DNA of 64,000 bases from Gemmatimonadota bacterium (GTDB taxonomy: Bacteria; Gemmatimonadota; Gemmatimonadetes; Gemmatimonadales; GWC2-71-9). This document shows positions 1-61,564 of this stretch, piece after piece. Numbering within the stretch: the stretch's first letter is position 1; each line of letters opens with the position of its first letter. A program made the translations under genes and the position numbers. The stretch spans positions 15,022 to 79,021 of the forward strand of contig QHUT01000054.1 of assembly GCA_003222055.1 (NCBI GenBank), read 5' to 3'. Under the pieces are notes generated by a model, which searched no databases, was not told where the DNA came from, and worked only from the letters and a program-made list of their open reading frames with translations.

Positions 1-158
1 TCGATGCGCACTCGCCACCCCTCCTCGCGGGCGGTGCCGAGCAGCAGCGCCACGGCATCGGGGGAGGCGGGCGCGACGCGCGGCACGCCGTCGGGCGTCG
101 CCGCGACCTCGACGGCTTCATCGCCCAGCAGGGCGCGGACGCGATCCAAGAGACTCAT
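1..158 (-). CDS. FAD-binding oxidoreductase, GlcE-like (N-terminal fragment; runs off the window)
   Basis: My own minus-strand translation from ATG 158..156 gives MSLLDRVRALLGDEAVEVAATPDGVPRVAPASPDAVALLLGTAREEGWRVRI. This resembles the N-terminus of a PCMH-type FAD-binding subunit. The ATG overlaps the TGA of the upstream glcD-like gene (ATGA). Confidence 0.45.
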   Translation of the reverse strand, partial: MSLLDRVRALLGDEAVEVAATPDGVPRVAPASPDAVALLLGTAREEGWRVRI

Positions 159-1657
159 CGAGCGGTTGCCTTCCGATCGATTGCGGATTGTGGATTGCGG
201 ATTGCGGATTGAGCCCCAGGGTTCGGCGCTCGCCCCATCCGCAATCCACTCCATTCCCGACACGCGTGCACCGGAACCACCTTCCCCGGGTTCACCCGCT
301 CCTCCGGGTCCCACACGTGGCGCACCGCGCGCATGGCGGCGAGCGAATCGCCGTCGAACAGGAGCGGCATGTAGCGGAGCTTGTCGAGCCCGATGCCGTG
401 CTCTCCCGTGATGGTCCCGCCGGCGGCGATGCACGTGGCCATGATTTCCGCGCTGGCCGCTTCCACCCGCTCGCGCAGGCCCGGCGTGCGGCCGTCGAAC
501 GAAATGTTGGGGTGCAGGTTGCCGTCGCCCGCGTGGAACACATTGCTGACCGTGAGCCCGTACTCGGCGGCGATCCGGGCGATCGTTTCCAGCACGTCGG
601 GGAGCGTGGAGCGGGGAACGACGGCGTCCTGGACCACCAGGTCGCGCGACAGCCGGCCCATGGCGCCGAAGGCTTTCTTGCGGCCGAGCCACAGCTTCTC
701 GCGCTGTTGCGCGTCCGCGGCCACGAGCACCGACCGCGCCCCGTGCGCGCGCAGCACGGCTTGGATCGTCTCGGCGTCCGCCGCGACCGCCGCCTCGTGC
801 GCGCCGTCGAGCTCGGCGAGCAGCACCGCCGCGGCATCGCGCGGGTAACCGGCCGCGTACACCGAGTCCTCCACTGCCTGGATGCACGACTGATCCATCA
901 TCTCGAGCGCGGCGGGCACGATCCCGCTGGCGATCACGGCGGACACGGCCTCACCGGCGGTACGCAATGAGGTGAAGTCGGCGAGCAAGGTGCGAACCGC
1001 CCGCGCGACGGGCAACAGCCGCACGGTGATGCGCGTCGCCACGCCGAAGTTGCCCTCCGAGCCGACGAACAGGCCGACCAGGTCGGGGCCCCACGGCTCG
1101 CCGCCGGGGCTGCCCAGCTCTACGACGCGTCCGTCCGCCAGCGCCACTTCCAGCGCGAGCACATGTGTCGCCGTCACCCCGTACTTGAGGCAGTGCGGGC
1201 CGCCCGCGTTTTCGGCCACGTTGCCGCCGATCGTACACGCGGTCTGACTCGAGGGATCGGGCGTATACTGCAGTCCGTGCGGTGCGGCGGCGACGGAGAG
1301 ACGGACGTTGACGACGCCGGGCTCGACCACGGCCAGCCTGTTGCGGGCGTCGATCTTGAGGATGCGGTTCAGCCGGGTCAGCACGATCAGCACCGCGTCG
1401 CCGTCGGCCAGCGCGCCCCCCGAGAGGCCGGTGCCCGCGCCACGTGGCACGAACGGCATGCCGAGCGCGCCGAGCAGCCGCACGACCGCGATCACCTCGT
1501 CCCGACTCCCCGGGAGCACGACCACGCCGGGCACGCGCCGGTGCGTGGGCAGCCCGTCCTTCGCGTACGTCACGCGCTCCGGCAGCGCCGTCCGCACGTG
1601 GCGCGGTCCGACGATCTCGGCGAGGGTGTCGACTAACGGCGCGAGGTCCCGTGCCAT
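155..1657 (-). CDS. glcD: FAD-linked oxidase, glycolate oxidase subunit GlcD / D-lactate dehydrogenase family
   Basis: Track ORF 155..1753. The likely start is ATG 1657 (MARDLAPLVDTLAEIVGPRHV). Motifs include VVLPGSRDEVIAVVRL, PRGAGTGLSGGA and C-terminal NPGKVVPVHACREWSG, which aligns with the E. coli GlcD tail. The last ~27 codons are encoded by repeat element A1. Confidence 0.85.
   Translation of the reverse strand: MARDLAPLVDTLAEIVGPRHVRTALPERVTYAKDGLPTHRRVPGVVVLPGSRDEVIAVVRLLGALGMPFVPRGAGTGLSGGALADGDAVLIVLTRLNRILKIDARNRLAVVEPGVVNVRLSVAAAPHGLQYTPDPSSQTACTIGGNVAENAGGPHCLKYGVTATHVLALEVALADGRVVELGSPGGEPWGPDLVGLFVGSEGNFGVATRITVRLLPVARAVRTLLADFTSLRTAGEAVSAVIASGIVPAALEMMDQSCIQAVEDSVYAAGYPRDAAAVLLAELDGAHEAAVAADAETIQAVLRAHGARSVLVAADAQQREKLWLGRKKAFGAMGRLSRDLVVQDAVVPRSTLPDVLETIARIAAEYGLTVSNVFHAGDGNLHPNISFDGRTPGLRERVEAASAEIMATCIAAGGTITGEHGIGLDKLRYMPLLFDGDSLAAMRAVRHVWDPEERVNPGKVVPVHACREWSGLRMGRAPNPGAQSAIRNPQSAIDRKATAR
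179..249. repeat. Heptamer-array palindromic element, family A (GCGGATT/AATCCGC), copy A1, one arm degenerate
   Basis: GATTGCGGATTGTGGATTGCGGATTGCGGATTG at 179..211, with partner CATCCGCAATCCAC at 236..249. It is translated as the GlcD-like C-terminus. Confidence 0.9.
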
Positions 1658-1674
1658 GGGTAAATAGTATACCG

Positions 1675-1790
1675 GCAGACGCCCAGACGCCGAGACGCCC
1701 AGCGGTGCGTAGCAGAGAGGGGCCAGGAATCCGTCTTCCTGGCCCCTTATCACGACATCCCGCTAGGCGTCTGAGCGTCTCGGCGTCTGC
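1675..1790. repeat. Composite palindrome: 30-nt arms of NNGCGTCT/AGACGCNN octamers around an inner 11-bp hairpin
   Basis: GCAGACGCCCAGACGCCGAGACGCCCAGCG (1675..1704) against CGCTAGGCGTCTGAGCGTCTCGGCGTCTGC (1761..1790), 26 of 30 complementary. The inner hairpin is GGGGCCAGGAA-TCCGTC-TTCCTGGCCCC at 1719..1746. Confidence 0.9.
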
Positions 1791-1791
1791 T

Positions 1792-2685
1792 CTATGCCGC
1801 TCTCCAGAACCCCCTGAGGGCCCGTCCGTCCGGCGACTCCCGCAGCTTCTCGAACGCGCGCTCTCGTATCTGTCTGATGCGCTCCCGCGTCACACCCATC
1901 AGCGCCCCGATCTTCTCGAGGGTCATGGCCTCGCTGCCCTCTTCGAGGCCGTAATAGAGATAGAGAATCTTGCGCTCGCGGGGCGTCAAGTACTTCTGGA
2001 AGATGCGGTCGATGAACTCGCGCATCAGCTTGCCGTCGGTCTTCTCCTCGATCTCGCCGCCTTCCTGGCCGGCGAAGCGCTCGCCCAGAGTAGCCGCGTC
2101 CTTGTCGCTCCGGTCCACCGGAGCGTCGAGCGACAGCTCCGCCGCCGTCATGCGACGCGCGGTGCGGACGTTCTCGACGGTGTCCTGGAGCGCCATCGCG
2201 ATCTCGTCGTCGGTCGGCTCGCGCCCGAGCTCCTGGGACAGATAGGTCTCGGTGCGGCTCATGCGGATCAGCTGCGAGTTCTGATTCAGCGGAATGCGCA
2301 CGCTGCGGGTCTGCTCGGCGAGTGCCTTCAACACCGCCTGCCGCACCCACCACACCGCATACGAGATGAACTTCACGCCTTGATCCGGATCGAATTTCTT
2401 GACCGCCTTGAGGAGCCCTTCGTTCCCGATCGCCACCAGCTCGGACAGGTCGAGACCGTGACCCTGATATTTCTTGACGTAGGAAATGACGAAGCGGAGG
2501 TTGGCGGTGACGAGCCGCTCGGCGGCTTTTTCATCGCCCCGCTGCACCCGTCGCGCGAGTCTGCGTTCTTCAGCGGGCTCTTTGATGAGGGGGAGCTTCT
2601 GAATGTCCTGCAGGTACTGGTCGAAGGCGCCGGAAGGATTGGCACGAAAAAACGCCTTGGCCTTGCCTCCGTTGGATCGCTCCAT
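1792..2685 (-). CDS. RNA polymerase sigma factor, sigma-70 family (RpoD/SigA-like short form, 297 aa)
   Basis: Region 2 is visible as RFVISYVKKY and FISYAVWWVRQAVLKAL. Region 4 is visible as LTPRERKILYLYYGL and MTLEKIGALMGVTRERIRQIRERAFEKLR. Confidence 0.9.
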   Translation of the reverse strand: MERSNGGKAKAFFRANPSGAFDQYLQDIQKLPLIKEPAEERRLARRVQRGDEKAAERLVTANLRFVISYVKKYQGHGLDLSELVAIGNEGLLKAVKKFDPDQGVKFISYAVWWVRQAVLKALAEQTRSVRIPLNQNSQLIRMSRTETYLSQELGREPTDDEIAMALQDTVENVRTARRMTAAELSLDAPVDRSDKDAATLGERFAGQEGGEIEEKTDGKLMREFIDRIFQKYLTPRERKILYLYYGLEEGSEAMTLEKIGALMGVTRERIRQIRERAFEKLRESPDGRALRGFWRAA

Positions 2686-30040: not shown

Positions 30041-30810
30041 CACGGGCTCCGGGCCACGACGACGTCCACCACGGTGCCGGGGGCGGCCAGCGTACCCGCC
30101 GCCGGCCGCTGCGCGATCACGGTGCCCGGCGTCGCTTCGCCCGAGCGGCGCCGCGTCACGGTACCCAGCGCGAGCCCCTCCTGCTCCAGACGGGTGCGAG
30201 CATCCGCCTGCGACAGGCCGAGCAGGCCCGGCACCGCGATGGTCGGGGCGCCCCGGCTCACCACCACCGTCACCGGCGCCCCCGGGGCCAGGAGCGTCGT
30301 GGCGGCCGGCCGGGTGAGCATCGTCACGCCGGGGGCCGCCGCGGCCTGCACCGACTCCACCTGCGCCACGGTGAGCCCGGCCGCGACGATCAGCTGCTGC
30401 GCCAGCGGTCCATCCAGGCCGGCCACGTGCGGTACCGGAATCTTGGGGGGACCGTCGCTCGACACCAGGGTCACCCGCAGCCCCGCCGGCGCGCTCACGC
30501 CGGCAGGCGGGTCCTGCCAAATGATGCTGCCCTGTGGGGCGCTGGGGTGCGACTCTGAGCCGCCGTCCTGCACCTGCAGCCCCGCCTTGCGGAGCGCGGC
30601 CGAGGCCTCCTGCAGCGACAGACCCAGCACGCGTGGTACGACATCGTGTCCGTGCAGGATGGGGGCGGGAAAGAGAACGAGGTACGCCGTCAGATACCCT
30701 ATCACGATGGCTCCGACGAGGGCGAGTCCCCAACGTCGCGCCCCGGACAGGTCGCCGAAGGCGGGCAGCTTCCATTCCTGCAGCGGCGGGACGTGACGGC
30801 GGAGCTGCAT
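30040..30810 (-). CDS. Membrane-anchored PASTA-domain protein (three PASTA-like repeats, no kinase or PBP domain)
   Basis: One TM segment (WGLALVGAIVIGYLTAYLVLF), then three repeats ~65-70 aa long of the type VPxVxGLsxxxAxxxLxxaGL...V. Confidence 0.7.
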   Translation of the reverse strand: MQLRRHVPPLQEWKLPAFGDLSGARRWGLALVGAIVIGYLTAYLVLFPAPILHGHDVVPRVLGLSLQEASAALRKAGLQVQDGGSESHPSAPQGSIIWQDPPAGVSAPAGLRVTLVSSDGPPKIPVPHVAGLDGPLAQQLIVAAGLTVAQVESVQAAAAPGVTMLTRPAATTLLAPGAPVTVVVSRGAPTIAVPGLLGLSQADARTRLEQEGLALGTVTRRRSGEATPGTVIAQRPAAGTLAAPGTVVDVVVARSP

Positions 30811-32060
30811 CAGCGCGTCCGCGCGAAGCGCGCCGCGTATGCACCGTCGATTCCGTCGCGCTGTGGCAGGGACTGCAGGTCGCCGTCCGGAGTGAGCAGG
30901 GCAGCCGGCACCGCGGCCGGCACGGGCGCGCGCCCGAACTCAGGGTGGCAGGCGAGGAACTCGGTCACGATGTCGTCGTTCTCCTCCGGCTCGAGCGAGC
31001 AGGTACTGTAGACGAGCAGTCCTCCCGCACCGACGAGCGTTGCGGCGGCCGCGAGCAGCGCCCGCTGCCGCCGGGCGGCGTGTACGATCGTGCGCGGCGT
31101 GATCCGCCAGCGGGCGTCCGGATGCCGGGCCATGGTGCCGGTAGCGGAGCACGGGGCGTCCACCAACACGGCGGATGCGGTTCCCGGCGCGAGCGGTGCC
31201 GACAGAAGATCGGCGACCGTCACCCGGATCGCCACTCCCGCCCGTCGCGTCGTCTCGGCCAGCCGGCGCATGCGCTCCGGCCGGGCGTCCCCCGCCACGA
31301 CTCGAGCGCCGCCCCGCTCCAGCATCACGGCCTTGCCGCCCGGCGCGGCACAGGCGTCGTACACGAGCGCTCCCGGGGGGATCGCGGCGTAGCGGCAGAC
31401 GAGGGCGTGGGCGGGGTCCTGGACGATAAAGCCGCCTTCCGAATACCCCGGCAACTGCACGGGAAACGGGAAACGGGAAACGTGGTCGAGGCGTGACACC
31501 CGCAGGCCGGCTCCATGGGGCGCTTCTTCTACACCAAACCCGACCTTCCGGAGCTCGAGCGCGAGCACATCGGCGGACCAACGGGCAGGCTGAAGCGTGA
31601 GATTCGGCTTCGTGTCATTCCAGGCGACCAGCCGGGTTGTGTCGGTCGCCCCAAAGAGGCGCCGCCAGCGCTCGACGAGCCACGACGGGTGCGTGTTCTC
31701 GCCCGTTTCCCGTTTCCGGTTTCCCGTTTCCCGAGCGAGCCTTCGCAGCGCCTGGTTCACATACCTCGCTGCCGCGTCGCCCGCCGCTTCCCGCGCCAGC
31801 TCCACGCTGGTGGCGACCGCCGCGTAGGCCGGCACGCGGGCCAATGCGGCCAGCTGGTAGGCGCCAAGACGGAGGACATCGTGCAGGCGCGGGTCGGCGT
31901 GGCGCAGCCGCAGCCGGCGGTCGAGATCCGCTCGCCCCCGCAGCACGCCGGCGGCGAGCTCATAGGCGAGCCGGCGGTCCCGCCCGGCGAGCGTGGGAAG
32001 CACCCGGTCCCGCGCCGCCTGGAACGTGCCGCCGGAGCGCACCGCCTGGAGGATGTGCAA
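30810..32060 (-). CDS. rsmB: 16S rRNA (cytosine967-C5)-methyltransferase
   Basis: HPSWLVERW, FIVQDPAHALV, DACAAPGGK, DAPCSATGT and YSTCSLEPEEN. It contains two in-frame heptamer arrays (see repeats). Confidence 0.9.
   Translation of the reverse strand: MHILQAVRSGGTFQAARDRVLPTLAGRDRRLAYELAAGVLRGRADLDRRLRLRHADPRLHDVLRLGAYQLAALARVPAYAAVATSVELAREAAGDAAARYVNQALRRLARETGNRKRETGENTHPSWLVERWRRLFGATDTTRLVAWNDTKPNLTLQPARWSADVLALELRKVGFGVEEAPHGAGLRVSRLDHVSRFPFPVQLPGYSEGGFIVQDPAHALVCRYAAIPPGALVYDACAAPGGKAVMLERGGARVVAGDARPERMRRLAETTRRAGVAIRVTVADLLSAPLAPGTASAVLVDAPCSATGTMARHPDARWRITPRTIVHAARRQRALLAAAATLVGAGGLLVYSTCSLEPEENDDIVTEFLACHPEFGRAPVPAAVPAALLTPDGDLQSLPQRDGIDGAYAARFARTR
31459..31482. repeat. (GGGAAAC)x3 heptamer array inside rsmB
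   Basis: ACGGGAAACGGGAAACGGGAAACG. It is translated on the minus strand as SRFPFP. Confidence 0.9.
31702..31733. repeat. (CCCGTTT)x4 heptamer array inside rsmB, inverted partner of 31459..31482
   Basis: CCCGTTTCCCGTTTCCGGTTTCCCGTTTCCCG. It is translated on the minus strand as RETGNRKRETG. Confidence 0.9.
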
Positions 32061-32088
32061 CGCCGCGCGCCGGGCGGCGGTGGCGTCG

Positions 32089-32886
32089 CTAATCCAGCAT
32101 TCCTTCGAGCGGCGACGACGGCACGGCGACCTCGCGCTTGGGCATGCGGCCCGCGAGGTAGGCGGTCCGGCCGGCCTCGACGGCCAGCCGCATCGCGTGC
32201 GCCATGCCCACGGGGTCTCGGGCCGCCGCCAGTGCGGTGTTCATCAGGATTCCGTCCACGCCCTGCTCCATCGTCACGCAGGCATCCGAGGCGGTCCCGA
32301 CGCCGGCGTCCACCACGACCGGCACCGTGAGCCGGTGCTTGATCGTCCGGACCCCGTACGGATTCAGGAGCCCCAGCCCGCTGCCGATCGGCGACGCCAG
32401 CGGCATCACGGCGGCGCACCCCGCGTCCTCGAGACGCAACGCGGTGACGAGATCCTCGTTGGTATAGGCCAGTACTTTGAAGCCGTCCTTGACCAGGGTG
32501 CGCGCTGCGTCCAGCAAACCCTGGACGTCGGGGAGCAGCGTCTCCTGGTCGCCGATCACCTCGAGCTTGACGAACTCGTTGAACCCGGCTTCGCGCGCCA
32601 GGCGGGCGTAGCGCACGGCGTCGTCGGCCGTGAAGCAGCCCGCGGTGTTCGCGAGCAGGACATAGCGGTTCGGATCGAGGTGGTGCAGGATCCCCGTCTC
32701 TTTCGAGCGATCGAGGTCCACGCGGCGCACCGCCACGGTCACGACCTCGGCCCCCGAGGCCTCGATTGCGCGAGCCATCGTTTCATTGTCGCGATACTTG
32801 CCCGTGCCCACCATGAGGCGCGAGTGGAACGTGCGACCGCCCACGACGAACGGCGTGTCCCGGACGGCGTCTACGGCCATGGTCAT
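32089..32886 (-). CDS. thiG: Thiazole synthase
   Basis: FHSRLMVGTGKY...VTVAVRR...LANTAGC...VMPLASPIGSGLG. Confidence 0.9.
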   Translation of the reverse strand: MTMAVDAVRDTPFVVGGRTFHSRLMVGTGKYRDNETMARAIEASGAEVVTVAVRRVDLDRSKETGILHHLDPNRYVLLANTAGCFTADDAVRYARLAREAGFNEFVKLEVIGDQETLLPDVQGLLDAARTLVKDGFKVLAYTNEDLVTALRLEDAGCAAVMPLASPIGSGLGLLNPYGVRTIKHRLTVPVVVDAGVGTASDACVTMEQGVDGILMNTALAAARDPVGMAHAMRLAVEAGRTAYLAGRMPKREVAVPSSPLEGMLD

Positions 32887-34653: not shown

Positions 34654-35202
34654 CTAGAGTTCGCCCGCCGGCTCCGGCGTGACCTCCTTCAGGTAGCCCG
34701 ACTGCCCCTTCCGCGCTTTCTTCCATTTGGCCAACAGCAGGCCGCGCTTCACGGCGCTGAGATGGTCGAGGAACAGCACGCCGTCGAGGTGATCGATCTC
34801 GTGCTGCACGGCCCGCGCCTTGAAGCCCGACAGCTGGGTGCGGTAGGGCCGGCCGTCGCGGTCCAGGGCTTCGAGCGTCATGGTGAGGGCGCGCTCGACA
34901 TCACCGTAGATATCGGGGATGGAGAGACAGCCCTCTTCCGCCGTCTCGCGCTCGTCCGACGCGGTGACGATCCGCGGGTTGACGAGGACCAGGGGTGGGG
35001 GATCGTCCTCGCCGACATCCACCACCGCCACCCGGCGCGCGATCCCCACCTGATTGGCGGCGAGGCCCACGCCCTTGGCCGCCCGCATCGTGTCGAACAG
35101 GTCGTCCACCAGCTGGCGCACCTCGTCGTCGACGGCGGCGACGGGCGCCGCGCGCTGCCGCAGCACTGGCGAGCCGAGCAGGTGGAGCTTGCGGACCGTC
35201 AC
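34654..35202 (-). CDS. def: Peptide deformylase
   Basis: GVGLAANQVG, EGCLSIP and QHEIDHLDG. The start GTG 35202 forms a GTGA overlap with the yajC stop. Confidence 0.92.
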   Translation of the reverse strand: MTVRKLHLLGSPVLRQRAAPVAAVDDEVRQLVDDLFDTMRAAKGVGLAANQVGIARRVAVVDVGEDDPPPLVLVNPRIVTASDERETAEEGCLSIPDIYGDVERALTMTLEALDRDGRPYRTQLSGFKARAVQHEIDHLDGVLFLDHLSAVKRGLLLAKWKKARKGQSGYLKEVTPEPAGEL

Positions 35203-35534
35203 TGGGGCTTGGCTTCGATCGACCGGTTGAGGATGTTGGCGATGTTGGTGCGCATCACGACGACGCGCGACTCGCCGCTCTTCACGGTCACTTCGTCGTC
35301 CTTCAGATGCACCACTTCGCCGATGATGCCGCCCGAGGTCACGACTTTGTCGCCGCGCTGCAGCGAGGCGAGCAGCTGGCGGTGGCGCTCCTGCTGCTTG
35401 CGCTGGGGTCGGATGAGCATGACGTAGAAGATCGCGATCAGCGCGGCGATCTGGACCAGGAAAATGGTGAGCCCGCCCGAAGCGTTCTGGCCCGAGGGGG
35501 CGAACAGCAGCGCCAGCATGGGGTGCGCGGTCAT
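35199..35534 (-). CDS. yajC: Preprotein translocase subunit YajC
   Basis: IFLVQIAALIAIFYVMLIRPQRKQQERHRQLLASLQRGDKVVTSGGIIGEV. ATGA overlap with the tgt stop. Confidence 0.88.
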   Translation of the reverse strand: MTAHPMLALLFAPSGQNASGGLTIFLVQIAALIAIFYVMLIRPQRKQQERHRQLLASLQRGDKVVTSGGIIGEVVHLKDDEVTVKSGESRVVVMRTNIANILNRSIEAKPQ

Positions 35535-36727
35535 GCGGATCCCGATCGCAGGTAGCGGCGGCGCCAGGCATCGGCCCACGGGCCGAAGGCGTTCCGCCGG
35601 ATCGCGGCCCGCATGTCCTGCGCGAGCCGGATCAGGTAGCGGACGTTGTGCAGCGACAACAGTCTCAGGCCCAGCAGCTCTTCCGCTACGAACAGGTGCC
35701 GGAGGTACCCCCGCGAGAACGTGGTGCACGCCTCGCAGTCGCACGAGTCGTCGAGCGGCCGCGGGTCCTCGCGGTGCTCGGCGTTGCGAATGTTCACGGG
35801 GCCGTCGGGCGTGAAGGCCGAGCCGTTTCGCCCGTTGCGCGTCGGCGCCACGCAGTCGAACAGATCCAGCCCGCGCTCCACCGCCGCCACCAGGTCCTCG
35901 GGAAACCCCACGCCCATAAGATAACGCGGCAGGGCGGGGGGGAGCCGCGGCTCGAGCGCGTCGAGCATCGCGTACATCGCCGCCTTGGGCTCGCCGACCG
36001 AGAGGCCGCCGATCGCGAGACCGGTCCAGTCGCGCATGTCGCAGATCCGGCGCAGTCCTTCCTCCCGCAGCGCGAGATGGACGCCGCCCTGGAGAATGGG
36101 CCACAAGGTCTGGTTGCACGACGCTACGACGCCACGTTGCAAGGAGTGCCCGGCGTCAGTCGTGGAACGTGGCGTCGTAGCGTCGTGTGACGCTTTCAGT
36201 TCCTCATGCCGCTTCCGGCACCGCTCCAACCATCTCAGCGTTCGCTCGAGGGCGTCCCTGGCCGCGCTCTCGTCCGCGCCCCCGGGGACCACGTGGTCGA
36301 ACGCCATCGCGACGTCGGCGCCCAGGGTCCACTGGATCTCCGTGGCGCGCTCGGGCGTGAGCCGGCGACGGCCGCCGTCCACGTGGCTCTGGAACTCGAC
36401 GCCGTCGTCGTCCACGCGCCGGAAGCCCTCGAGCGAGAATACCTGGAAGCCGCCCGAGTCCGTGAGCAGCGGTCGATCCCAGCCCATGAAGCGGTGCAGC
36501 GCGCCGAGCGTCGCCACCACCTCCTCGCCCGGGCGCACGTGCAGGTGATAGGTGTTCGCGAGCACGAGCGTCGCGCCCGCGGCGCGGAGGTCGTTGGGCG
36601 AAAGCGCCCGCACGGTGCCTTGAGTCCCGACCGGCATGAAGACCGGCGTTTCGACGCTACCGTGCGGGAGGGTGAGGGTGCCGGCGCGGGCGGGGCCGGA
36701 GGTCGCGTCGACCTTGAACTCGAACAC
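35531..36727 (-). CDS. tgt: Queuine tRNA-ribosyltransferase (tRNA-guanine transglycosylase)
   Basis: The start GTG 36727 gives (M)FEFKVDATSGPARAGTL, which aligns with E. coli MKFELDTTDGRARRGRL. Also LTDSGGFQVFSL, GLAIGGLSVGE and CDCEAC. The ~25-aa loop HDATTPRSTTDAGHSLQRGVVAS is encoded by palindrome B1. The track ORF N-terminus (to 36811) runs through repeat A2 and is rejected. Confidence 0.92.
   Translation of the reverse strand: MFEFKVDATSGPARAGTLTLPHGSVETPVFMPVGTQGTVRALSPNDLRAAGATLVLANTYHLHVRPGEEVVATLGALHRFMGWDRPLLTDSGGFQVFSLEGFRRVDDDGVEFQSHVDGGRRRLTPERATEIQWTLGADVAMAFDHVVPGGADESAARDALERTLRWLERCRKRHEELKASHDATTPRSTTDAGHSLQRGVVASCNQTLWPILQGGVHLALREEGLRRICDMRDWTGLAIGGLSVGEPKAAMYAMLDALEPRLPPALPRYLMGVGFPEDLVAAVERGLDLFDCVAPTRNGRNGSAFTPDGPVNIRNAEHREDPRPLDDSCDCEACTTFSRGYLRHLFVAEELLGLRLLSLHNVRYLIRLAQDMRAAIRRNAFGPWADAWRRRYLRSGSA
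36117..36187. repeat. Octamer-array palindromic element, family B (CACGACGC/GCGTCGTG), copy B1, inside tgt
   Basis: Perfect 22-bp inverted repeat: CACGACGCTACGACGCCACGTT (36117..36138) and AACGTGGCGTCGTAGCGTCGTG (36166..36187), with a 27-nt loop. Confidence 0.95.
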
Positions 36728-36734
36728 GGGCGTT

Positions 36735-36812
36735 ATTGCGGATTGCGGATTTCGGATTGCGGATTCGAAAGTCGGGCGTCCAATCCGCAATCCACAATCC
36801 GCAATCCGCAAT
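36735..36812. repeat. Heptamer-array palindromic element, family A, copy A2
   Basis: Left arm ATTGCGGATTGCGGATTTCGGATTGCGGATT (36735..36765). Loop CGAAAGTCGGGCGTCC. Right arm AATCCGCAATCCACAATCCGCAATCCGCAAT (36782..36812). 29 of 31 positions are complementary. It fills the queA-tgt gap. Confidence 0.95.
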
Positions 36813-37864
36813 CAGAGTACCGCCATTGCATCCCCATACGAGTAAAACCGGTATCCCTCCCTTACCGCTTCCCCGTACGCCCGCATGACGTTGTCATAGC
36901 CCCCGAACGCGCACACCAACATTAGCAGGGTCGAGCGCGGCAGGTGGAAGTTCGTGAGCAGCCGGTCGACCGCGCGGAACGAGTACGGGGGGTGAATGAA
37001 GAGCCGGGTCTCGCCGGCGCCCGGAGCGATGCGGCCGCGCTCGCCGGCAAGCGTTTCGAGCGTGCGCACGACCGTGGTCCCGACCGCCCAGACGCGACCT
37101 CCCGCTTCCCGTCGCTCGTTGATGATCCCGGCCGCGCTGTCGCTCACCCGGTACGGCTCGTCGTGCATCGCATGGCGCGCGAGGTCGTCGGTCTCGACCG
37201 GCTTGAAGGTGCCGGGGCCGACGTGCAGGTCCACTTCCGCGAGCGCCACGCCCTTGTCGCGCAGCCGGTCCAACAGGTCGCGCGTGAAATGCAATCCGGC
37301 CGTGGGAGCGGCGACGCTGCCGTCGTGTGCCGCGTACACCGTCTGGTAGCGCTCGCGATCCTCGGGGCGCGGCGCGCGGCGGATGTAGGGCGGCAGTGGC
37401 ACCTCGCCGTACTTGGCGAGCGTGGCCGGGGCGTCGAGCGCGCCGACGAACCGCACCCGGCGGAGGCCGCCTCCCAACGCCTCGACGATCTCCGCGGTGC
37501 TGTCGGGGCCGAACGTCACGCGGCGTCCCGACTTGAGCTTGCCTCCGGGATGCCCCATGGCGAGCCAGGTCCCATCGGGTAGCTCCCGGACGAGCAAGAG
37601 TTCGGCCTTGCCGCCGGACCCGCCCATCCCGCTTCCCGCAAGCCGCATCCCGTGCAGTCTCGCCGGAATCACGCGTGACACGTTGACGACGAGCACGTCC
37701 TCCGGCGCCACCAGATCGACGACGTCGACGAACCGCCCGTGGCGGATCGCCCCGCTGGCGCGATCGAGCACCAGGAGGCGACTCCCGCCCCGATCGGGGA
37801 GCGGGTCTTGGGCGATCTGCTCGGCTGGCAGACTGTAGTCGAAGTCTGAAGTTCGGTAGAGCAC
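36812..37864 (-). CDS. queA: S-adenosylmethionine:tRNA ribosyltransferase-isomerase
   Basis: The start GTG 37864 gives (M)LYRTSDFDYSLPAEQIAQDPL, which aligns with E. coli MRVTDFSFELPESLIAHYP. Also TRVIPARL-like VSRVIPARL, AAPTAGLHFT and FRFYSYGDAM. The track ORF N-terminus runs through repeat A3. Confidence 0.92.
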   Translation of the reverse strand: MLYRTSDFDYSLPAEQIAQDPLPDRGGSRLLVLDRASGAIRHGRFVDVVDLVAPEDVLVVNVSRVIPARLHGMRLAGSGMGGSGGKAELLLVRELPDGTWLAMGHPGGKLKSGRRVTFGPDSTAEIVEALGGGLRRVRFVGALDAPATLAKYGEVPLPPYIRRAPRPEDRERYQTVYAAHDGSVAAPTAGLHFTRDLLDRLRDKGVALAEVDLHVGPGTFKPVETDDLARHAMHDEPYRVSDSAAGIINERREAGGRVWAVGTTVVRTLETLAGERGRIAPGAGETRLFIHPPYSFRAVDRLLTNFHLPRSTLLMLVCAFGGYDNVMRAYGEAVREGYRFYSYGDAMAVL

Positions 37865-37870
37865 GCCGAG

Positions 37871-37952
37871 AATTGCGGATGGCGGATTTCGGATTGCGGA
37901 TTCGAAGGTCGTGGGTCCAATCCGCAATCCGCACTCCACAATCCGCAATCCG
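37871..37952. repeat. Heptamer-array palindromic element, family A, copy A3
   Basis: AATTGCGGATGGCGGATTTCGGATTGCGGATT, loop CGAAGGTCGTGGGTCC, then AATCCGCAATCCGCACTCCACAATCCGCAATCCG. It fills the ruvB-queA gap. Confidence 0.95.
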
Positions 37953-37954
37953 TG

Positions 37955-38995
37955 TTAGCCGTCAAACATCGTCGGCTGGTCCGCGCTTCGGGGCGGCGTG
38001 AAGCCGAAATGCTTGTACGCGCCTGCCGTGGCGCAGCGGCCGCGCGGCGTGCGCGCCAGGAACCCCTGCTGCATCAGGAACGGCTCGTACACTTCTTCGA
38101 GCGTGCCGGCGTCCTCCCCCACGGCGGCGGCGATGGTGGTGAGTCCCACCGGGCCCCCGTCGAACTGCTCGATGATCGTCTTGAGGATACGCCCGTCCAT
38201 GTCGTCGAGACCGAACTCGTCTACGTCCAGGCGTTGGAGGGCCTCCCCCGCTACCTGCGCCGTGATCTTGCCGCCGGCGCGCACCTGGGCGTAGTCGCGG
38301 ACCCGCTTCAGCAGCCGGTTCGCGACGCGGGGCGTCCCGCGACTGCGGCGGGCGATTTCGGCGATGCCTGCGACGTCCGCGGGGACGCCCAGGATCCCGG
38401 CCGAGCGGCTGATGATCTGCGCCAGGTCGTCCGGCGGATAGTAGGAGAGGCGCTCTACCAGCCCGAAGCGCGCGCGCATCGGCGGCGTCAGCAGGCCGAA
38501 TCGGGTGGTCGCCCCGATCAGCGTGAACCGCTCGAGCGCCATCGGAATGGTCTGCGCGTGCGGACCCTCGGCGACGCGGACGTCGACCCGGTAGTCCTCC
38601 ATCGCGGGGTAGAGGAATTCCTCGAGCGCCGGGCGCAGGCGGTGCACTTCGTCGATGAACAGGATGTCGTTCGCCTGGAGCGACGTGAGCAGGCCCACCA
38701 GGTCTCCCGGCCGCTCGAGCACCGGGCCCGAGGTCGTGCGGACGCTCACGCCCAGCTCCTTCGCCATGAGCAGCGCGAGGGTCGTTTTGCCGAGTCCCGG
38801 GGGCCCGAAGAACAGCGTGTGGTCGAGGGGCTCCCGCCGCTGCTTCGCTGCGTCGATGGCGATTTGGAGCGACTCCTTCACCTTCGCCTGGCCGACGAAC
38901 TCGTCCAGCCCCGACGGCCGCAGCGCGGCGTCGGTGAGCCGCTCGTCGGGCAGGGCGTCCGGCGTGGTGACCTGGGTCCGCGCGCGCGTGCTCAC
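37955..38995 (-). CDS. ruvB: Holliday junction branch migration helicase RuvB
   Basis: [19 protein letters not shown]...[14 protein letters not shown]...IDEVHRL. The start GTG 38995 forms a GTGA overlap with the small ORF stop. The Arg-rich extension to 39154 is judged off-frame. Confidence 0.92.
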
Positions 38996-39177
38996 GCCGC
39001 CTTGTTCCCCAGGGGCCGCGCGCGCCACCGCACCGGTCGCGCGTCGGCTTCGAGCGCATGCCTGGTGTGGCAGGCGACGCACTCGTCCGTGGCGCGCGTC
39101 GCGCCGTCGGGCACGAGGAGCCGGTTGGTCGAGCCGCAGCGTGTGCAGATCCACTCAGCGGTGAGGGCCATGGTCAT
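38992..39177 (-). CDS. Small zinc-ribbon protein (CxxC...CxxC), 61 aa, between ruvA and ruvB
   Basis: [40 protein letters not shown]... Its ATG overlaps the ruvA stop (ATGA) and its TGA overlaps the ruvB GTG (GTGA). Nearly all third codon positions are G/C in this frame. Confidence 0.65.
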
Positions 39178-39779
39178 CCTTTGGTGAGCAGTTGCAGGGC
39201 GCGCCGCACCAGCGTCTCCGGGTCGACACCGCTTCCACCGTCCGCGGCGAGCACGTGGCGCAACGCGCGGTCGGCCTCGACGGTCGCGTACCCGAGCCGC
39301 TCGAGTGCGTGGAGCGCCGCTTCTGCCGCCCCCGCCGCTCCTCCCGCCACCATCGCTCCCCCCGCTTCCTCAAACTCGCCGAGCTTGTCGGCCAGTTCAA
39401 GCGCCAGCCGCTCGGCCGTCTTCTTCCCGATCCCGCTCACCGACGCGAGCAACGCGATGTTCCGCTCCTTCACCGCCCGCGCCCCACGCTCCACCCCCAG
39501 GGCGGACATCAAGGCGATCGCGATCTTCGGCCCCACGCCGCTCACGCCGATGAGCCGCTGGAAGAAGCGGCGGCCGGCGTCGTCGTGAAACCCGTAGAGC
39601 GACCAGCCGTCCTCGCGCACCACCAGCTCGGTGGCGAGGGTGACCGTCTCGCCCACCGCGGGCAGTCGCTCCATCACGCCCAGCGGCACCACGATCTCGT
39701 AGCCGACGCCGCCCGCGGTGTGGATCAGGACGCGGTCCGCCTGCTTGGCGGCGAGGCGCCCGGCGACCTGAGCGATCAC
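39174..39779 (-). CDS. ruvA: Holliday junction DNA-binding protein RuvA
   Basis: MIAQVAGRLAAKQADRVLIHTAGGVGYEIVVP...LIGVSGVGPKIALALM-like...GIGKKTAERL. Confidence 0.92.
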   Translation of the reverse strand: MIAQVAGRLAAKQADRVLIHTAGGVGYEIVVPLGVMERLPAVGETVTLATELVVREDGWSLYGFHDDAGRRFFQRLIGVSGVGPKIAIALMSALGVERGARAVKERNIALLASVSGIGKKTAERLALELADKLGEFEEAGGAMVAGGAAGAAEAALHALERLGYATVEADRALRHVLAADGGSGVDPETLVRRALQLLTKG

Positions 39780-40270
39780 GTCCGCAGGATGTGGGTGAGC
39801 GCCACGGCCACGCCGTCGGCCGCGTCGGCGGGTCGGGGGGCCTCTTTGAGCCGCAACAGCCGGGCGACCACGCTGCCGATCTGCGCCTTCGGGGCCCCGC
39901 CCGCCCCCGCCACCGTTTTCTTGACCGTCGCCGGCGGATACTGCGCGATGGCGAGGCCCGCCTGCTCGGCGGCGAGCAGGATGACGCCCCGGGCGTGCCC
40001 GAGGACCAGCGTGGTATGGACGTTCTTCGCGTAGAAGGCGTTCTCCAGCGCCAGCGTGCCGGGGCGATGCCGCGCGATCAGGCCGGTGATGTGCTCATGG
40101 AGGGCGCGCAGCCGCTCGGGGAGGGGGCTCTTGGCGGCGAAGCGGATCACGCCACACTCGATCAGCCGGGCCACCCGGTCCGGCCGGTCCCGTGCGGAGC
40201 CGCCGTTCCCGGTCTCGATCACGCCATAGCCGGTGACCGCCGTGCCCGGGTCGACGCCCAGGACCTTCAC
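39776..40270 (-). CDS. ruvC: Crossover junction endodeoxyribonuclease RuvC
   Basis: MKVLGVDPGTAVTGYGVIE...ALENAFYAKN...ADAADGVAVAL. Confidence 0.92.
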   Translation of the reverse strand: MKVLGVDPGTAVTGYGVIETGNGGSARDRPDRVARLIECGVIRFAAKSPLPERLRALHEHITGLIARHRPGTLALENAFYAKNVHTTLVLGHARGVILLAAEQAGLAIAQYPPATVKKTVAGAGGAPKAQIGSVVARLLRLKEAPRPADAADGVAVALTHILRT

Positions 40271-40271
40271 G

Positions 40272-41021
40272 TCACGCCGTCGCCGCCGCCAGCGCCTCGG
40301 CGTCGATGTCGAAGTTGGATGACACCTTGGCGACGTCGTCCATTTCTTCGAGCGCGTCGATCAGCGAGAGCAGCTGCTTCGCGTCCCTGCCGTCCACCTT
40401 CACGGTGCTCTTGGGGAGCAGCGCGATCTCGGCGGCCTGTACCGCGATTTTCTTCGCCTTGAGCCGCTCGCTGATCAGATGCAGCCGGCCCGCGGGTCCG
40501 GTGATGAGAAACACCTCGCCCTCGCGCACCATGTCTTCCGCGCCGGCATCGAGCGCCGCCTCCATCACCGCGTCCTCGTCGGCACGCGTCGCGTCCACGG
40601 TGATCTGGGCCTTGCGGTCGAACATCCACGCCACCGAGTTCGCGGCACCGAGGTTGCCGCCGTGGCGCTGGAACACGTGGCGAATCTCCGCGACGGTGCG
40701 GTTGGCGTTGTCCGTGGTCGCTTCGATGAGCAGCGCCGCGCCGCCGGGACCGTACCCCTCGTAGGTGACCTCTTCGTAGGTCACGCCTTCGAGCTCGCCG
40801 GTCCCCTTCTTGACGGCGCGCTCGATATTGTCGAGCGGCATGTTCTCCGCCTTGGCGGCGTCGATGGCGGTGCGGAGCCGGGCGTTGCCCGCGGGATCGC
40901 CGCCGCCCTGCTTGGCGGCGATCGTGATCTCGCGGATCAGCTTGGTGAAGAGCGCGCCCCGCCGCGCGTCGGTGACGGCCTTCTTCCGCTTGATCTGTTT
41001 CCACTTACTGTGGCCGGCCAT
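40272..41021 (-). CDS. YebC/PmpR family DNA-binding transcriptional regulator
   Basis: MAGHSKWKQIKRKKAVTDARRGALFTKLIREITIAAKQGGGDPAGNARLR. Confidence 0.92.
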   Translation of the reverse strand: MAGHSKWKQIKRKKAVTDARRGALFTKLIREITIAAKQGGGDPAGNARLRTAIDAAKAENMPLDNIERAVKKGTGELEGVTYEEVTYEGYGPGGAALLIEATTDNANRTVAEIRHVFQRHGGNLGAANSVAWMFDRKAQITVDATRADEDAVMEAALDAGAEDMVREGEVFLITGPAGRLHLISERLKAKKIAVQAAEIALLPKSTVKVDGRDAKQLLSLIDALEEMDDVAKVSSNFDIDAEALAAATA

Positions 41022-41039
41022 GGCCCTAACCTACACGTT

Positions 41040-41930
41040 TCACCGATCCGGGTCGAGCATATCCTCGAACCGCATCCAGCGTCGATAGAAGTACAGGTCG
41101 ACGAAGCCGGTCGGCCCGTTGCGGTTCTTGAGCACGATCAATTCCGTGGCGCCGTCCACGCCGTAGCCCGGGTTGTACATCTCCTCCCGGTACAGCCCGA
41201 GCACCAGATCGGCGTGCTGCTTGATCGCGCCCAGGTGTCCGAAGTCGTCGAGCGCGGGCCTGGCGTTGGGGCGCTTGGCGTCGAACCGGGGCAGCTGCGA
41301 CACCACGACGAGCGCCACCTGGCGCTCGAGCGCCAGCGCCTTGAGCCGCTGCAGCACCAGCGCCAGGTCCTCGTCCTGCGTCGAGCGGGCCACACCCGAA
41401 GGCGACGGCACGAGCTGCAGGTAGTCCACGATCACGAGACCCAGCGGTGGCAGGGGCTCGAGCCGCCGGGCGACGGACTCGAAATCCGGGGCCGCGAGGG
41501 ACAGCGTGGTGAGCGGGAGGTCGCGCAGCCGCACGGCCGCACCGCCGATGCCGGCGCGCGTCTCGTCGTTGAGCTTGGCGCCGCGCAGCTCGTCCACGGC
41601 CACCCGCCCCTCGATCGCGAGCGCGCGCTCCATGAGGCGCTCTTGGTCCATCTCTCCCGAGAACAGCGCGACCGCGGTGCCGCGCTGCGCCACGCGCAGG
41701 GCCAGTCCCAGCGCGAGCGCCGACTTGCCGGAGCCGATGTCGCCTCCCAGCACCACGAGGTCGCGGCGACGCACCCCACCCCCCAACAGCCGGTCGATGG
41801 ACGGGAAGCCCGTGGGGATCGTGTCGCTCGGGACGTCGCCCGGGCGCTGCTGATCCACCCGCGCGACGAGGGACTCGGGTGAGGGTGAAGAGGACTGGGA
41901 CAGGCGTTTCGGGAACCGACGGCTCGGCAT
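41040..41930 (-). CDS. DnaB-helicase C-terminal (RecA-fold) domain protein lacking the N-terminal domain, about 296 aa
   Basis: PTGFPSIDRLLGGGVRRRDLVVLGGDIGSGKSALALGLAL (Walker A), LVIVDYLQLV (Walker B), VVVSQLPR, ADLVLGLYREEMY and LKNRNGPTGFVDLYF. The start is ATG 41930. The track ORF extension to 42005 crosses repeat E. Confidence 0.75.
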   Translation of the reverse strand: MPSRRFPKRLSQSSSPSPESLVARVDQQRPGDVPSDTIPTGFPSIDRLLGGGVRRRDLVVLGGDIGSGKSALALGLALRVAQRGTAVALFSGEMDQERLMERALAIEGRVAVDELRGAKLNDETRAGIGGAAVRLRDLPLTTLSLAAPDFESVARRLEPLPPLGLVIVDYLQLVPSPSGVARSTQDEDLALVLQRLKALALERQVALVVVSQLPRFDAKRPNARPALDDFGHLGAIKQHADLVLGLYREEMYNPGYGVDGATELIVLKNRNGPTGFVDLYFYRRWMRFEDMLDPDR

Positions 41931-41943
41931 GACGGCCCCTCCT

Positions 41944-41989
41944 GTGCGTCTGTGCGTCTGTGCGTCTAGCCTACTATAGATGTAGACGC
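41944..41989. repeat. (GTGCGTCT)x3 octamer array ending in a 7-bp hairpin
   Basis: GTGCGTCTGTGCGTCTGTGCGTCT at 41944..41967. GCGTCTA (41962..41968) pairs with TAGACGC (41983..41989). The GCGTCT core is the same as in element 1675..1790. Confidence 0.85.
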
Positions 41990-57252: not shown

Positions 57253-57259
57253 AGCGTTA

Positions 57260-57330
57260 CACGACGCCACGACGCCACGACGCCACGTTGCGAGAGCCTC
57301 TTTCGTGGAACGTGGCGTCCTGCCGTCATG
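57260..57330. repeat. Octamer-array palindromic element, family B, copy B2 (between convergent genes)
   Basis: (CACGACGC)x3 + CACGTT at 57260..57289, with partner AACGTGGCGTCCTGCCGTCATG at 57309..57330 (19 of 22 complementary). The loop starts GCGAG and ends TCGTGG, like B1. Confidence 0.9.
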
Positions 57331-57982
57331 CAACGCTCTCTCGGTGCTTATCCCCCCACCACGCCCACGCCACAAACAGCCACCCGAAGATGATACCGCC
57401 GATGGCGAGCGCGACGCGCGTCGTCGGCGGTGGCGGACTGAACAGCGAGCCGACGTACGACAGCAGCAGCACCGCGACGAGCGCCCAGAATCCGTAGCTC
57501 CCCGCGCGGTCGCGGGCTCGCGTGGCGGTGGCGTAGAGCCAGACGCCCGCGACGAACATCACTCCCTCGACGACCACCGTGCCGGCGACGGAGTTCCAGA
57601 GACCGAGCCCCAGCGGCGTGCCGCCCGGGTACAGCGGCATGTCGGGGCGATGGGTGACGTAGTCGAGCACCCAGTGGCTCACGACGAGGAGCGCGATCAC
57701 GACCCCTCCGCGGTCGTCCAGCGTGCGCGCGCGGTACACCAACCCGAACAGCGCGCCCCATCCGATCAGGGTGACGAGGCTGTGCGAGATCGGGATCGAG
57801 TCGAGCCACAGCGTCAGGAACGGATTCGGCCCCGGCACGACGTGGGCCTGCTCCCAGCCGAGCAGCAGGAACACCGGCCACAGCAGATCGGCGAGCGACG
57901 TGGCGGCGAACAGCGTGCCCAGCGAGGCTCGCGGCGCGGCACGCTTCGCGGCCAGGGCGACGGCGTAGTGGCCGATGAACAT
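57326..57982 (-). CDS. Integral membrane protein (putative membrane-bound metal-dependent hydrolase-like)
   Basis: MFIGHYAVALAAK... with about six hydrophobic segments and conserved His residues. The family is uncertain. The last codons lie in repeat B2. Confidence 0.5.
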   Translation of the reverse strand: MFIGHYAVALAAKRAAPRASLGTLFAATSLADLLWPVFLLLGWEQAHVVPGPNPFLTLWLDSIPISHSLVTLIGWGALFGLVYRARTLDDRGGVVIALLVVSHWVLDYVTHRPDMPLYPGGTPLGLGLWNSVAGTVVVEGVMFVAGVWLYATATRARDRAGSYGFWALVAVLLLSYVGSLFSPPPPTTRVALAIGGIIFGWLFVAWAWWGDKHRESVA

Positions 57983-61477: not shown

Positions 61478-61564
61478 GAGGGGCTAGGGGTCGGGGGCTA
61501 GGGGCTGGGGACTGCGCTGCCATCCCGAATCCCTGACCCCTGACCCCTGATCCCTGACCCCTGA
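61478..61564. repeat. G-tract / C-tract heptamer palindrome (GGGGCTA-type arm against CCCTGAC-type arm)
   Basis: GGGGCTAGGGGTCGGGGGCTAGGGGCTGGGG at 61480..61510 and CCCTGACCCCTGACCCCTGATCCCTGACCCCTGA at 61531..61564. The right arm ends at the ATG of the amidohydrolase gene. Confidence 0.9.

Follow-up and report, generated by a model that had tools for sequence, protein, structure and literature searches.

Heptamer-array hairpins at both junctions flanking queA in a Gemmatimonadales operon are probably copies of a dispersed palindromic repeat

The ruvA-ruvB-queA-tgt-yajC-def operon of a Gemmatimonadota bacterium lies on the minus strand of contig QHUT01000054.1, within the 64,000-nucleotide (nt) stretch of DNA analyzed here and referred to as the window. 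Two palindromes built from GCGGATT heptamers, A2 and A3, occupy the junctions on either side of queA. Both are real and extremely stable, and together they fill both gaps flanking this gene, as the initial annotation of the window had observed. The features at the locus are the following.

36735–36812, minus strand: A2, a palindromic repeat of 4 x GCGGATT, a 16-nt loop and 4 x AATCCGC, occupying the queA-tgt junction
37872–37952, minus strand: A3, the second copy of the A2-type repeat (palindrome 37872–37949, array to 37952), occupying the ruvB-queA junction
36812–37864, minus strand: queA, encoding S-adenosylmethionine:tRNA ribosyltransferase-isomerase; GTG start at 37864 and TGA stop at 36812–36814, as given by translation and in agreement with the starts of orthologues
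35531–36727, minus strand: tgt, encoding tRNA-guanine transglycosylase (TGT); GTG start at 36727, stop overlapping the yajC ATG as ATGA
37955–38995, minus strand: ruvB; TAA stop at 37955–37957, with 346-amino-acid RuvB gene calls on loci L001 and L207

Read on the plus strand, A2 consists of ATTGCGG ATTGCGG ATTTCGG ATTGCGG ATT, the loop CGAAAGTCGGGCGTCC, and AATCC GCAATCC ACAATCC GCAATCC GCAAT. In the mRNA sense, its 31-nt arms span 36782–36812 (5′) and 36735–36765 (3′) around a loop at 36766–36781. A repeat finder returned arms of 34 nt for both elements, at 36735–36768 and 36779–36812 for A2 (91% complementary) and at 37872–37905 and 37916–37949 for A3 (85% complementary). These arms are period-7 arrays of 4.4–5.0 copies each according to Tandem Repeats Finder (TRF). 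Re-reading of the sequence bears out the earlier description of near-identical palindromes with four heptamers per arm, the 16-nt loop of A3 (CGAAGGTCGTGGGTCC) being unlike that of A2 at three positions. The double heptamer GCGGATTGCGGATT, with up to two mismatches, is matched 18 times in the window against 0.62 expected, a number that none of 100 shuffles reaches. Calculation of the free energy, which had been proposed as a check of stability, gives −59.0 kcal/mol for A2 (z −8.2) and −53.1 kcal/mol for A3 (z −5.8) when both are folded as RNA in the mRNA (minus) sense; in neither case is any of 200 shuffles as good.

Both elements fit tightly between their neighbors. The queA stop (TGA, 36812–36814) shares the outermost base of A2 at its 5′ foot, while the 3′ foot at 36735 is separated from the tgt GTG (36727–36725) by a spacer of 7 nt, to be corrected from the 8 nt given before. 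A3 indeed spans nearly the whole of the 90-nt ruvB-queA gap, leaving 2–3 nt after the ruvB TAA and about 5–7 nt before the queA GTG. Both GTG starts that follow the hairpins are devoid of a Shine-Dalgarno (SD) sequence. Elsewhere between ruvA and def, neighboring genes overlap or abut, as had been stated, judging from the gene calls on L207 and on L001, a JGI soil contig almost identical to the window. No U-tract or T-run is found 3′ of A2 or A3, and a T-tail terminator scan of 35000–41500 gave no site at either hairpin. A sigma-70 promoter scan of the same region returned nothing at A2 or A3. A scan of 35000–39500 against Rfam 15, with E up to 1, yielded no family at its gathering score, the microRNA-precursor look-alikes reaching 20–38 bits where 67–100 are needed.

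The same two junctions were compared in 80 queA loci from species-representative genomes together with L188, L205 and L207. In more distant Gemmatimonadales with the ruvB-queA-tgt order, the junctions measure 0–17 nt and often overlap as TAATG or ATGA. Within the clade with a QueA identity of at least 67%, junction lengths are bimodal, either 0–30 nt or about 76–124 nt, and a hairpin folding at −36 to −74 kcal/mol occupies the long ones. The window, L188, L005, L006, L016, L205 and L207 have a hairpin at each of the two junctions. A hairpin is present at the upstream (ruvB-queA) junction only in L007 and L009–L012 and at the downstream (queA-tgt) junction only in L013, and both junctions are empty in L004, L014, L015 and L017. 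Genomes differ in their unit, which may be GCGGATT, GCGGAAT, GCGGAAC or GCGGAGT. E.g., L205 carries the AAC type at both junctions, L207 combines AAC with AGT, and L009 has ATT upstream and an empty gap downstream. Collapsed remnants persist in L007 (AACGCGGAACGCGTT) and L004. Across about 20 filled junctions, 0–6 nt separate the stop codon from the hairpin and 0–12 nt the hairpin from the start codon. It is conceivable that the first array unit itself contributes the stop codon (TGAtt, TGAac, TAAtg), an idea weighed by comparing filled with empty sites. The hairpins are thus lineage-restricted additions to junctions that work without them, and do not represent ancestral control of the queuosine genes.

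The element is not confined to this operon. A metagenome scan with the pattern GGATTGCGGATT-N8-38-AATCCGCAATCC (two units, 8–38 nt, two complementary units) gave at least 119 stretches in contigs of 40–72% G+C. Among the matches listed, L188 is the only full ruvB-queA-tgt locus, whereas L120 gives a match to QueA alone and L127 to Tgt alone. The core GGATT-CGAAG-N-GTCC-AATCC recurs in at least 10 other high-GC contigs at unrelated loci. In the high-GC copies among the matches listed, whose flanks are unrelated, a register-anchored count of units per arm gives exactly 4+4 units in 26 of 30, and the loop measures 16 nt in 24 of 30. A variant unit, GAAATCC, faces GGATTGT or GGATTTC in at least 12 of 34 copies, giving rise to a conserved mid-stem mismatch, and the loop interior is found in both flip states. 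Two contigs bearing the element encode proteins that cluster at 90% identity or more with proteins of NCBI Acidobacteria metagenome-assembled genomes (MAGs), and array hairpins with other units are present in named Acidobacteriota and Verrucomicrobiota loci. The element was found in one IMG/VR contig only as regards a viral origin, and phage and plasmid collections gave no blastn hit, in a search whose low-complexity filter may conceal matches. In the literature searched, neither the string GCGGATTGCGGATT nor AATCCGCAATCCGC was found, and a search combining Gemmatimonadetes with palindromic or tandem repeats gave nothing specific.

Hairpin pairs also bracket genes, among them those for DinB, ribosomal protein L5, an oxidoreductase and a cyanophycinase. 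In L150 (1367–2053; 56% G+C contig) GCGGATT hairpins bracket an apparent ribosomal protein L5 gene and in L117 (44% G+C contig) an apparent DinB gene, which suggests that the same heptamer element colonizes core operons of quite different organisms. A 136-nt composite foldback at L139:102–237 (48% G+C metagenome contig) has arms made of an outer ACACAAAG-like array and an inner GCGGATT array, two unit families being nested in one hairpin.

The family is thus dispersed and has a fixed architecture, its presence at the two junctions is variable and lineage-restricted, and its symmetry is Watson-Crick on both strands. We consider it likely that A2 and A3 are copies of a dispersed REP-like (repetitive extragenic palindromic) repeat of about 78 nt that colonizes stop/start junctions, and not a control device specific to queuosine. 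The architecture of this repeat is [ATTGCGG]x4, a 16-nt loop and [CCGCAAT]x4, of which A1 is a decayed third copy. It belongs to a superfamily of heptamer-array hairpins with GCGGA-TT, -AAT, -AAC and -AGT units as well as many unrelated ones. Judging from the junctions of the relatives, these hairpins would have colonized operon junctions of originally 0–17 nt in one soil Gemmatimonadales clade. The idea of a punctuation devised for two queuosine genes is not supported, given relatives with one or no hairpin, at least 10 unrelated loci, and sister elements elsewhere and in coding sequence.

Two of these further elements of the window lie within genes.

179–250, minus strand: A1, the degenerate third GCGGATT copy, whose arms hold 4.7 and about 2 units, within the 3′ end of a GlcD-like open reading frame (ORF)
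36117–36187, minus strand: in-tgt hairpin of a sister family, made of CACGACGC-type octamer arrays in frame, with 25-nt arms that are 96% complementary

A1 is translated as …QSAIRNPQSAIDRKATAR directly before the stop codon of its host ORF, a GlcD-like FAD oxidase (155–1753, minus strand), and this stop overlaps the ATG of the next gene as ATGA. The in-tgt hairpin encodes about 22 extra residues (…SHDATTPRSTTDAGHSLQRGVVAS…), which form an insertion relative to the solved TGT of Z. mobilis. The segment is missing from Tgt homologues of 373–375 amino acids, and others have different palindrome-derived peptides at that site. With this additional array hairpin inside tgt, A2 and A3 are not alone as strong hairpins of this stretch. 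A third case is rsmB (30810–32240, minus strand), which carries complementary in-frame heptamer arrays at 31459–31482 and 31702–31733 (ACGGGAA, CCCGTTT). They flank 216 nt encoding the conserved HPSWL... segment and provide the closing stem of the minimum-energy fold. Arrays are present at the same two linker positions in at least 12 relatives and absent from more distant ones. Their units differ by genome (GGGAAAC, GGGATGC, GGGAGCG, GGGACGG, GGGGCTG or GGAGCAC), and the arms are complementary in all relatives but L008. Since a mobile hairpin does not explain the rsmB arrays, some process must spread variants within an array and onto the opposite arm. The products of tgt, glcD and rsmB contain real peptide segments encoded by such repeats.

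Other array hairpins of the window are intergenic. A large one at 1675–1790, with 55-nt arms that consist of CAGACGCC octamer arrays in their outer parts, reaches −92.6 kcal/mol in the gene sense; it occupies the gap between a sigma-70 family gene (1792–2685, minus strand) and the GlcD-like gene, and begins 1 nt past the stop codon. A CACGACGC-type array hairpin at 57253–57337 directly follows the TAA of a plus-strand gene ending at 57252, between convergent genes. At 61479–61564 an AGGGGCT/CCCTGAC heptamer hairpin fills the junction of two plus-strand genes, and the following ATG stands at its 3′ foot. An intergenic, perfect CTGTGCGT x 3.2 octamer array at 41942–41967 has no clear complementary partner array.

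Selection acting on the transcript only should favor folding of the sense strand via G·U pairs. The sense strand does fold better for A1, A2 and A3 in the window, yet the result is mixed at the orthologous operon junctions, and of 21 oriented family copies the sense strand is better in 9 and the antisense strand in 11, with a mean difference of 0.08 kcal/mol. The G·U asymmetry was therefore dropped as an argument for an RNA function; the lack of a sense-strand bias indicates that the symmetry is kept as Watson-Crick DNA. The elements also diverge differently from their surroundings. Between A2 and its L188 orthologue 3 of 79 positions differ (3.8%), including 1 of 16 in the loop, against third-codon differences of 38% in ruvB, 39% in queA and 32% in tgt; in the 7-nt spacer between A2 and tgt, 4 positions differ. 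A3 differs from its L188 counterpart at 12 of 81 positions, mostly in the loop. The elements are far from neutral and under either constraint or homogenization. A gap-free alignment of eight orthologous ruvB-queA hairpins has 88% of its cells paired and nine pairs changed on both sides, all at unit positions 6–7, with a covariation score unmatched in 500 shuffles. This covariation alone is no proof of function, because any palindromic element is self-complementary by construction.

Several observations weigh against repeated insertion of a mobile repeat. Mobility is deduced solely from dispersed copies that share loops and variant units, because no transposase, RAYT (REP-associated tyrosine transposase) gene or consistent target-site duplication was found. 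Thirteen hairpin-bracketed genes were checked by eye; those that can be recognized are ordinary or housekeeping genes and none is transposase-like. In about 2 Mb of loci, a limited sample, no transposase-like ORF is enclosed by inverted arrays separated by up to 6 kb. No RAYT gene lies near the copies examined, a search that did not extend to whole genomes. No consistent direct repeat flanks 34 copies, the frequent AATT ends being palindromic and indistinguishable from an extension of the arms. The 64-kb window holds only three copies of the GCGGATT element. Furthermore, the ruvB-queA junction is occupied in most close relatives, the unit types at this junction form a chain of single-step changes (ATT-AAT-AAC, AAT-AGT), and at the queA-tgt junction the loop GAAGGACGxGCGyC is common to GCGGAAC, GCGGAGT and GCGGATT hairpins; the single-step chain and the shared loop fit better with a long-resident element evolving in place. 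That A2 has diverged so little, with 15 of 16 loop positions unchanged, could reflect purifying selection for a local function instead of homogenization. Finally, the arrays of rsmB lie on either side of an essential coding segment, which rules out their arrival as a single mobile hairpin. Based on the rsmB evidence, slippage and arm-to-arm correction are taken to operate together with dispersal.

For a dispersed repeat at these junctions, we propose the following account. As DNA, the element would persist by copying or gene conversion between copies, by slippage in the arrays and by correction from arm to arm. The junctions would tolerate an insert of about 80 nt since the foldback loops it out and places stop and start side by side at the foot of the stem. 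Transcribed within the polycistronic mRNA, the element would form a stem of about 33 bp with the stop codon on one side of its foot and the SD-less GTG on the other. A ribosome terminating on ruvB or queA would have to open the outer turns of the stem and thereby expose the adjacent start codon of the next gene. Initiation at a GTG without SD sequence, 6–7 nt past the stem, would then depend on unwinding by the terminating ribosome of the upstream gene. Exposure of the start in this way, in combination with the adjacency brought by the foldback, would explain how 80 nt are tolerated in junctions formerly of 0–17 nt. RNase III could plausibly accept a perfect stem of such length as its substrate. 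Like a REP stem, it might be cut by this enzyme or act as a roadblock to 3′-5′ exonucleases, favoring the upstream cistron and lowering the downstream one. Side effects of this kind on the operon mRNA are probable by analogy with REP elements of E. coli, where REP325 stabilizes the upstream mRNA and attenuates the downstream gene (bioRxiv 10.64898/2026.03.23.713779). They would be general properties of the repeat and not a queuosine-specific circuit.

The ORFs can be read through both elements. Pfam Queuosine_synth matches the queA product on L001 (where the gene is identical), L205 and L207, and Tgt homologues at 81–98% identity belong to MAGs named as Gemmatimonadales or Gemmatimonadetes, the window itself being from a soil lineage of Gemmatimonadales. 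Across 23 aligned Tgt sequences, M/V-F-[ED]-F is conserved at the N-terminus, the start codon being usually ATG, and long products of 425–427 amino acids have leaders that are derived from palindromes and mutually unrelated. QueA orthologues start 3–5 codons ahead of the SDFDY motif, with or without a preceding hairpin. Translation of the hairpins, giving Tgt and QueA longer N-termini, is hence barely conceivable, even if TTG-start ORFs traverse both elements in frame and some gene callers give the long Tgt products. Such open frames are expected and uninformative, GCGGATT and AATCCGC both being free of stop codons in all frames. The leaders differ in sequence between genomes and are absent from most homologues, relatives with empty gaps begin at the conserved MFEF and SDFDY, and the alignment to the solved Z. 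mobilis TGT begins at query residue 2. Homologue starts and the solved TGT thus place both starts after the hairpins, and the MRIADCGLRIG... extensions are not real, as was argued from the outset. For annotation this means that the hairpins lead gene callers to false N-terminal extensions of 25–30 residues, as in the 425–427-amino-acid Tgt products, and the queA start is called too far downstream in L001. In the same operon a conserved ORF of 59–61 amino acids (38992–39177, minus strand) lies between ruvA and ruvB with a 4-nt overlap with each. Its product has two CxxC pairs (…WICTRCG…ECVACH…) and resembles a zinc ribbon; the gene calls of L001, L002 and L207 include this ORF, for which Pfam gives no hit.

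Two alternatives assign the hairpins a role in the expression of this operon. If A2 and A3 were locus-specific cis-regulatory punctuation, they would be selected to set the ruvB:queA:tgt expression ratio, whether by attenuation, mRNA processing, mRNA stabilization or a block of translation for the queuosine genes. They do occupy exactly the two junctions flanking queA, with the same unit type at both in the window, L188, L005, L006, L016 and L205; A2 is conserved about ten-fold better than third-codon positions, and REP elements are able to attenuate or stabilize mRNA. Yet relatives have the same operon with one hairpin or none, an identical element stands at unrelated loci, it occurs in either orientation without sense-strand bias, and neither an Rfam family nor a T-tail terminator was detected, so that we regard this explanation as quite improbable. 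Still less credit is due to the view that both are Rho-independent terminators dividing the operon into separate transcription units, which we hold to be very improbable. The very stable stems right after stop codons and the sister element between convergent genes (57253–57337) are in its favor, but both hairpins lack a U-tract and gave no signal in the terminator scan, their stems of 31–33 bp far exceed those of known intrinsic terminators, the next start at 6–7 nt leaves no room for a promoter, and sister hairpins lie within coding sequences.

Other explanations operate at the level of DNA. The hairpins may have grown in place by polymerase slippage, with template switching across the quasi-palindrome keeping the arms complementary, and this we retain as a tentative possibility for their origin. 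The rsmB arrays keep their position in at least 12 genomes while the units change, with arms that stay complementary across 216 nt. The unit types at the ruvB-queA junction are one step apart and covary on both arms (nine two-sided pairs; 0 of 500 shuffles), the queA-tgt loop is common to several unit types, and period 7 is dominant among hairpin-forming arrays, slippage having been proposed as the cause of a heptamer excess (PMC4692102). Local growth alone nevertheless leaves unexplained the fixed design of 4+4 units and a 16-nt loop, the shared loop and GAAATCC variant at many unrelated loci, and the same heptamer in contigs of 40–72% G+C, including Acidobacteriota-like ones. In-place growth probably operates alongside dispersal, not instead of it. 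Alternatively, the 4+4 heptamers could be cooperative sites of a protein-binding array for a recombinase, a transposase-like factor or a nucleoid protein, the variable positions 6–7 following the specificity of the binding protein in each genome. This would agree with a unit subtype that is mostly uniform within a genome and different between genomes, a unit number fixed at four as in Xanthomonas, the symmetry of both strands and the strict polarity with the G-rich arm 5′ (26 of 33 and 38 of 51 pairs, with 5 and 4 opposite; no reversed GCGGATT arrangement in 204 loci). No candidate protein was found, however, L207 and L007 mix subtypes, and many unrelated units coexist in the window; we consider such an array improbable.

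Period and polarity apply to the class as a whole. Period 7 accounts for 26 of 33 hairpin-forming arrays at loci that were not chosen by the GCGGATT pattern and for 41 of 51 with other units at metagenome loci, whereas it is not dominant among arrays in general. In the same two sets of pairs 26 and 38 have the G-rich arm 5′, compared with 5 and 4 of the opposite bias, and the reversed GCGGATT arrangement does not occur among 204 loci. As the elements are palindromes, this polarity holds on both strands. As a speculation, the rule might reflect avoidance of an exposed C-rich, Rho-attracting arm before its partner is transcribed.

A bolder proposal is that heptamer-array foldbacks are a distinct cross-phylum class of DNA elements, apart from REP/RAYT and from MITEs (miniature inverted-repeat transposable elements), with arms kept complementary and units uniform by a DNA-level process or a partner protein, and with A2 and A3 as conserved 'junction clamps' that have a selected role in the operon. 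We regard this as rather unlikely. If true, the design would be four units, a loop of about 16 nt and four complementary units with the G-rich arm always 5′, and the variable unit positions 6–7 would shift in concert genome-wide. By bringing its ends together, such an element could occupy stop/start junctions without breaking translational coupling, and could likewise clamp a coding segment, as the paired arrays seem to do around the 216 nt of rsmB in at least 12 genomes despite complete unit turnover.

The wider class outweighs the local finding, given its fixed 4+4 design, polarity, cross-phylum spread, in-frame copies and covarying rsmB arrays. The convergent architecture of four heptamer units known from Xanthomonas does not depend on G-quadruplexes and is also present in Gemmatimonadota and Acidobacteriota. 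A hairpin divergence of 3.8% beside third-codon differences of 32–39%, together with arms that covary across 216 nt of coding sequence, offers a tractable case for studying the upkeep of palindromes. The stem reaching from a stop codon to the next start allows a test of whether translational coupling is preserved, tuned or blocked.

Several known systems share part of these features. The REP elements, bacterial interspersed mosaic elements (BIMEs) and REPINs (REP doublets forming hairpins) of Enterobacteria and Pseudomonas are likewise dispersed imperfect palindromes in the junctions of co-transcribed genes, with a genome-specific sequence and the G-rich arm 5′, and the RNA hairpins of REP elements can stabilize the upstream mRNA and attenuate the downstream gene. 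The present element is palindromic and dispersed across contigs, but its arms are tandem heptamer arrays in a 78-nt element instead of a single palindrome of 20–40 nt, its foot lacks the GTAG or CGTC tag, with (A)ATTGCGG...CCGCAAT(T) as the ends, and A1 lies within an ORF. With MITEs it shares terminal inverted repeats, the element being a 31-nt inverted repeat plus loop, yet no parent insertion sequence (IS) with the same ends was found in about 2 Mb of loci, a limited sample. Rickettsia palindromic elements (RPEs), reportedly described by Ogata and colleagues in 2000, are said to reside between genes and in frame within conserved protein genes, where they add a peptide. In-frame palindromes in protein genes are paralleled here by A1 in the glcD tail and by the tgt and rsmB sister elements; the in-tgt element and A1 share the in-frame insertion itself, unlike A2 and A3, which are intergenic. 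RPEs are also said to measure 100–150 bp, to lack short tandem units and to belong to obligate intracellular alpha-proteobacteria. Eukaryotic foldback (FB) transposons are kilobases long, with target-site duplications and sometimes a coding loop. Their inverted arms of tandem short repeats, variable or absent center and homogenization of units within arms resemble the present hairpins, for which no comparable size, target-site duplication or coding loop is seen.

Among heptamer repeats, the cyanobacterial short tandemly repeated repetitive (STRR) sequences and GGGGA(C/T)T repeats and the TAACTGA heptamers of Beggiatoaceae are intergenic and often end a few nt from a start codon, with a patchy cross-phylum spread and no known mechanism (PMC4679880, PMC4692102). 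Unlike A2 and A3, they are almost always single direct arrays without hairpins; inverted cases are rare, with 1 of 170 TAACTGA sets and few pairs in Nostoc (PMC4679880, PMC4692102). The closest published analogue is found in Xanthomonas campestris and X. axonopodis, whose genomes each hold 70–75 convergent pairs of GGGAATC heptamer arrays, mostly of four units (Rehm et al., 2015; PMC4692102). About 90% of these pairs are intergenic, mostly between co-oriented genes and on average 28 nt from the upstream ORF; their position is conserved and their length variable between species, a G-quadruplex interpretation has been discussed for them, and no function is known (PMC4692102). Both systems consist of convergent tandem heptamers (4+4 units in 26 of 30 family copies here) that are able to form stem-loops, with the G-rich strand 5′ on both strands, and both are dispersed and mainly intergenic near the 3′ end of the upstream ORF, the hairpin standing 0–6 nt past the stop codon in our case. 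The G-quadruplex interpretation is inapplicable to the GCGGATT element, because its unit has only GG and no G-tract of three or more. In contrast to the Xanthomonas pairs, the element described here is present in Gemmatimonadota and also in Acidobacteriota-like contigs, forms a self-contained unit of about 78 nt whose 16-nt loop and variant units are conserved, abuts stop and start codons within 0–12 nt, and has sister elements that lie in frame in coding sequences.

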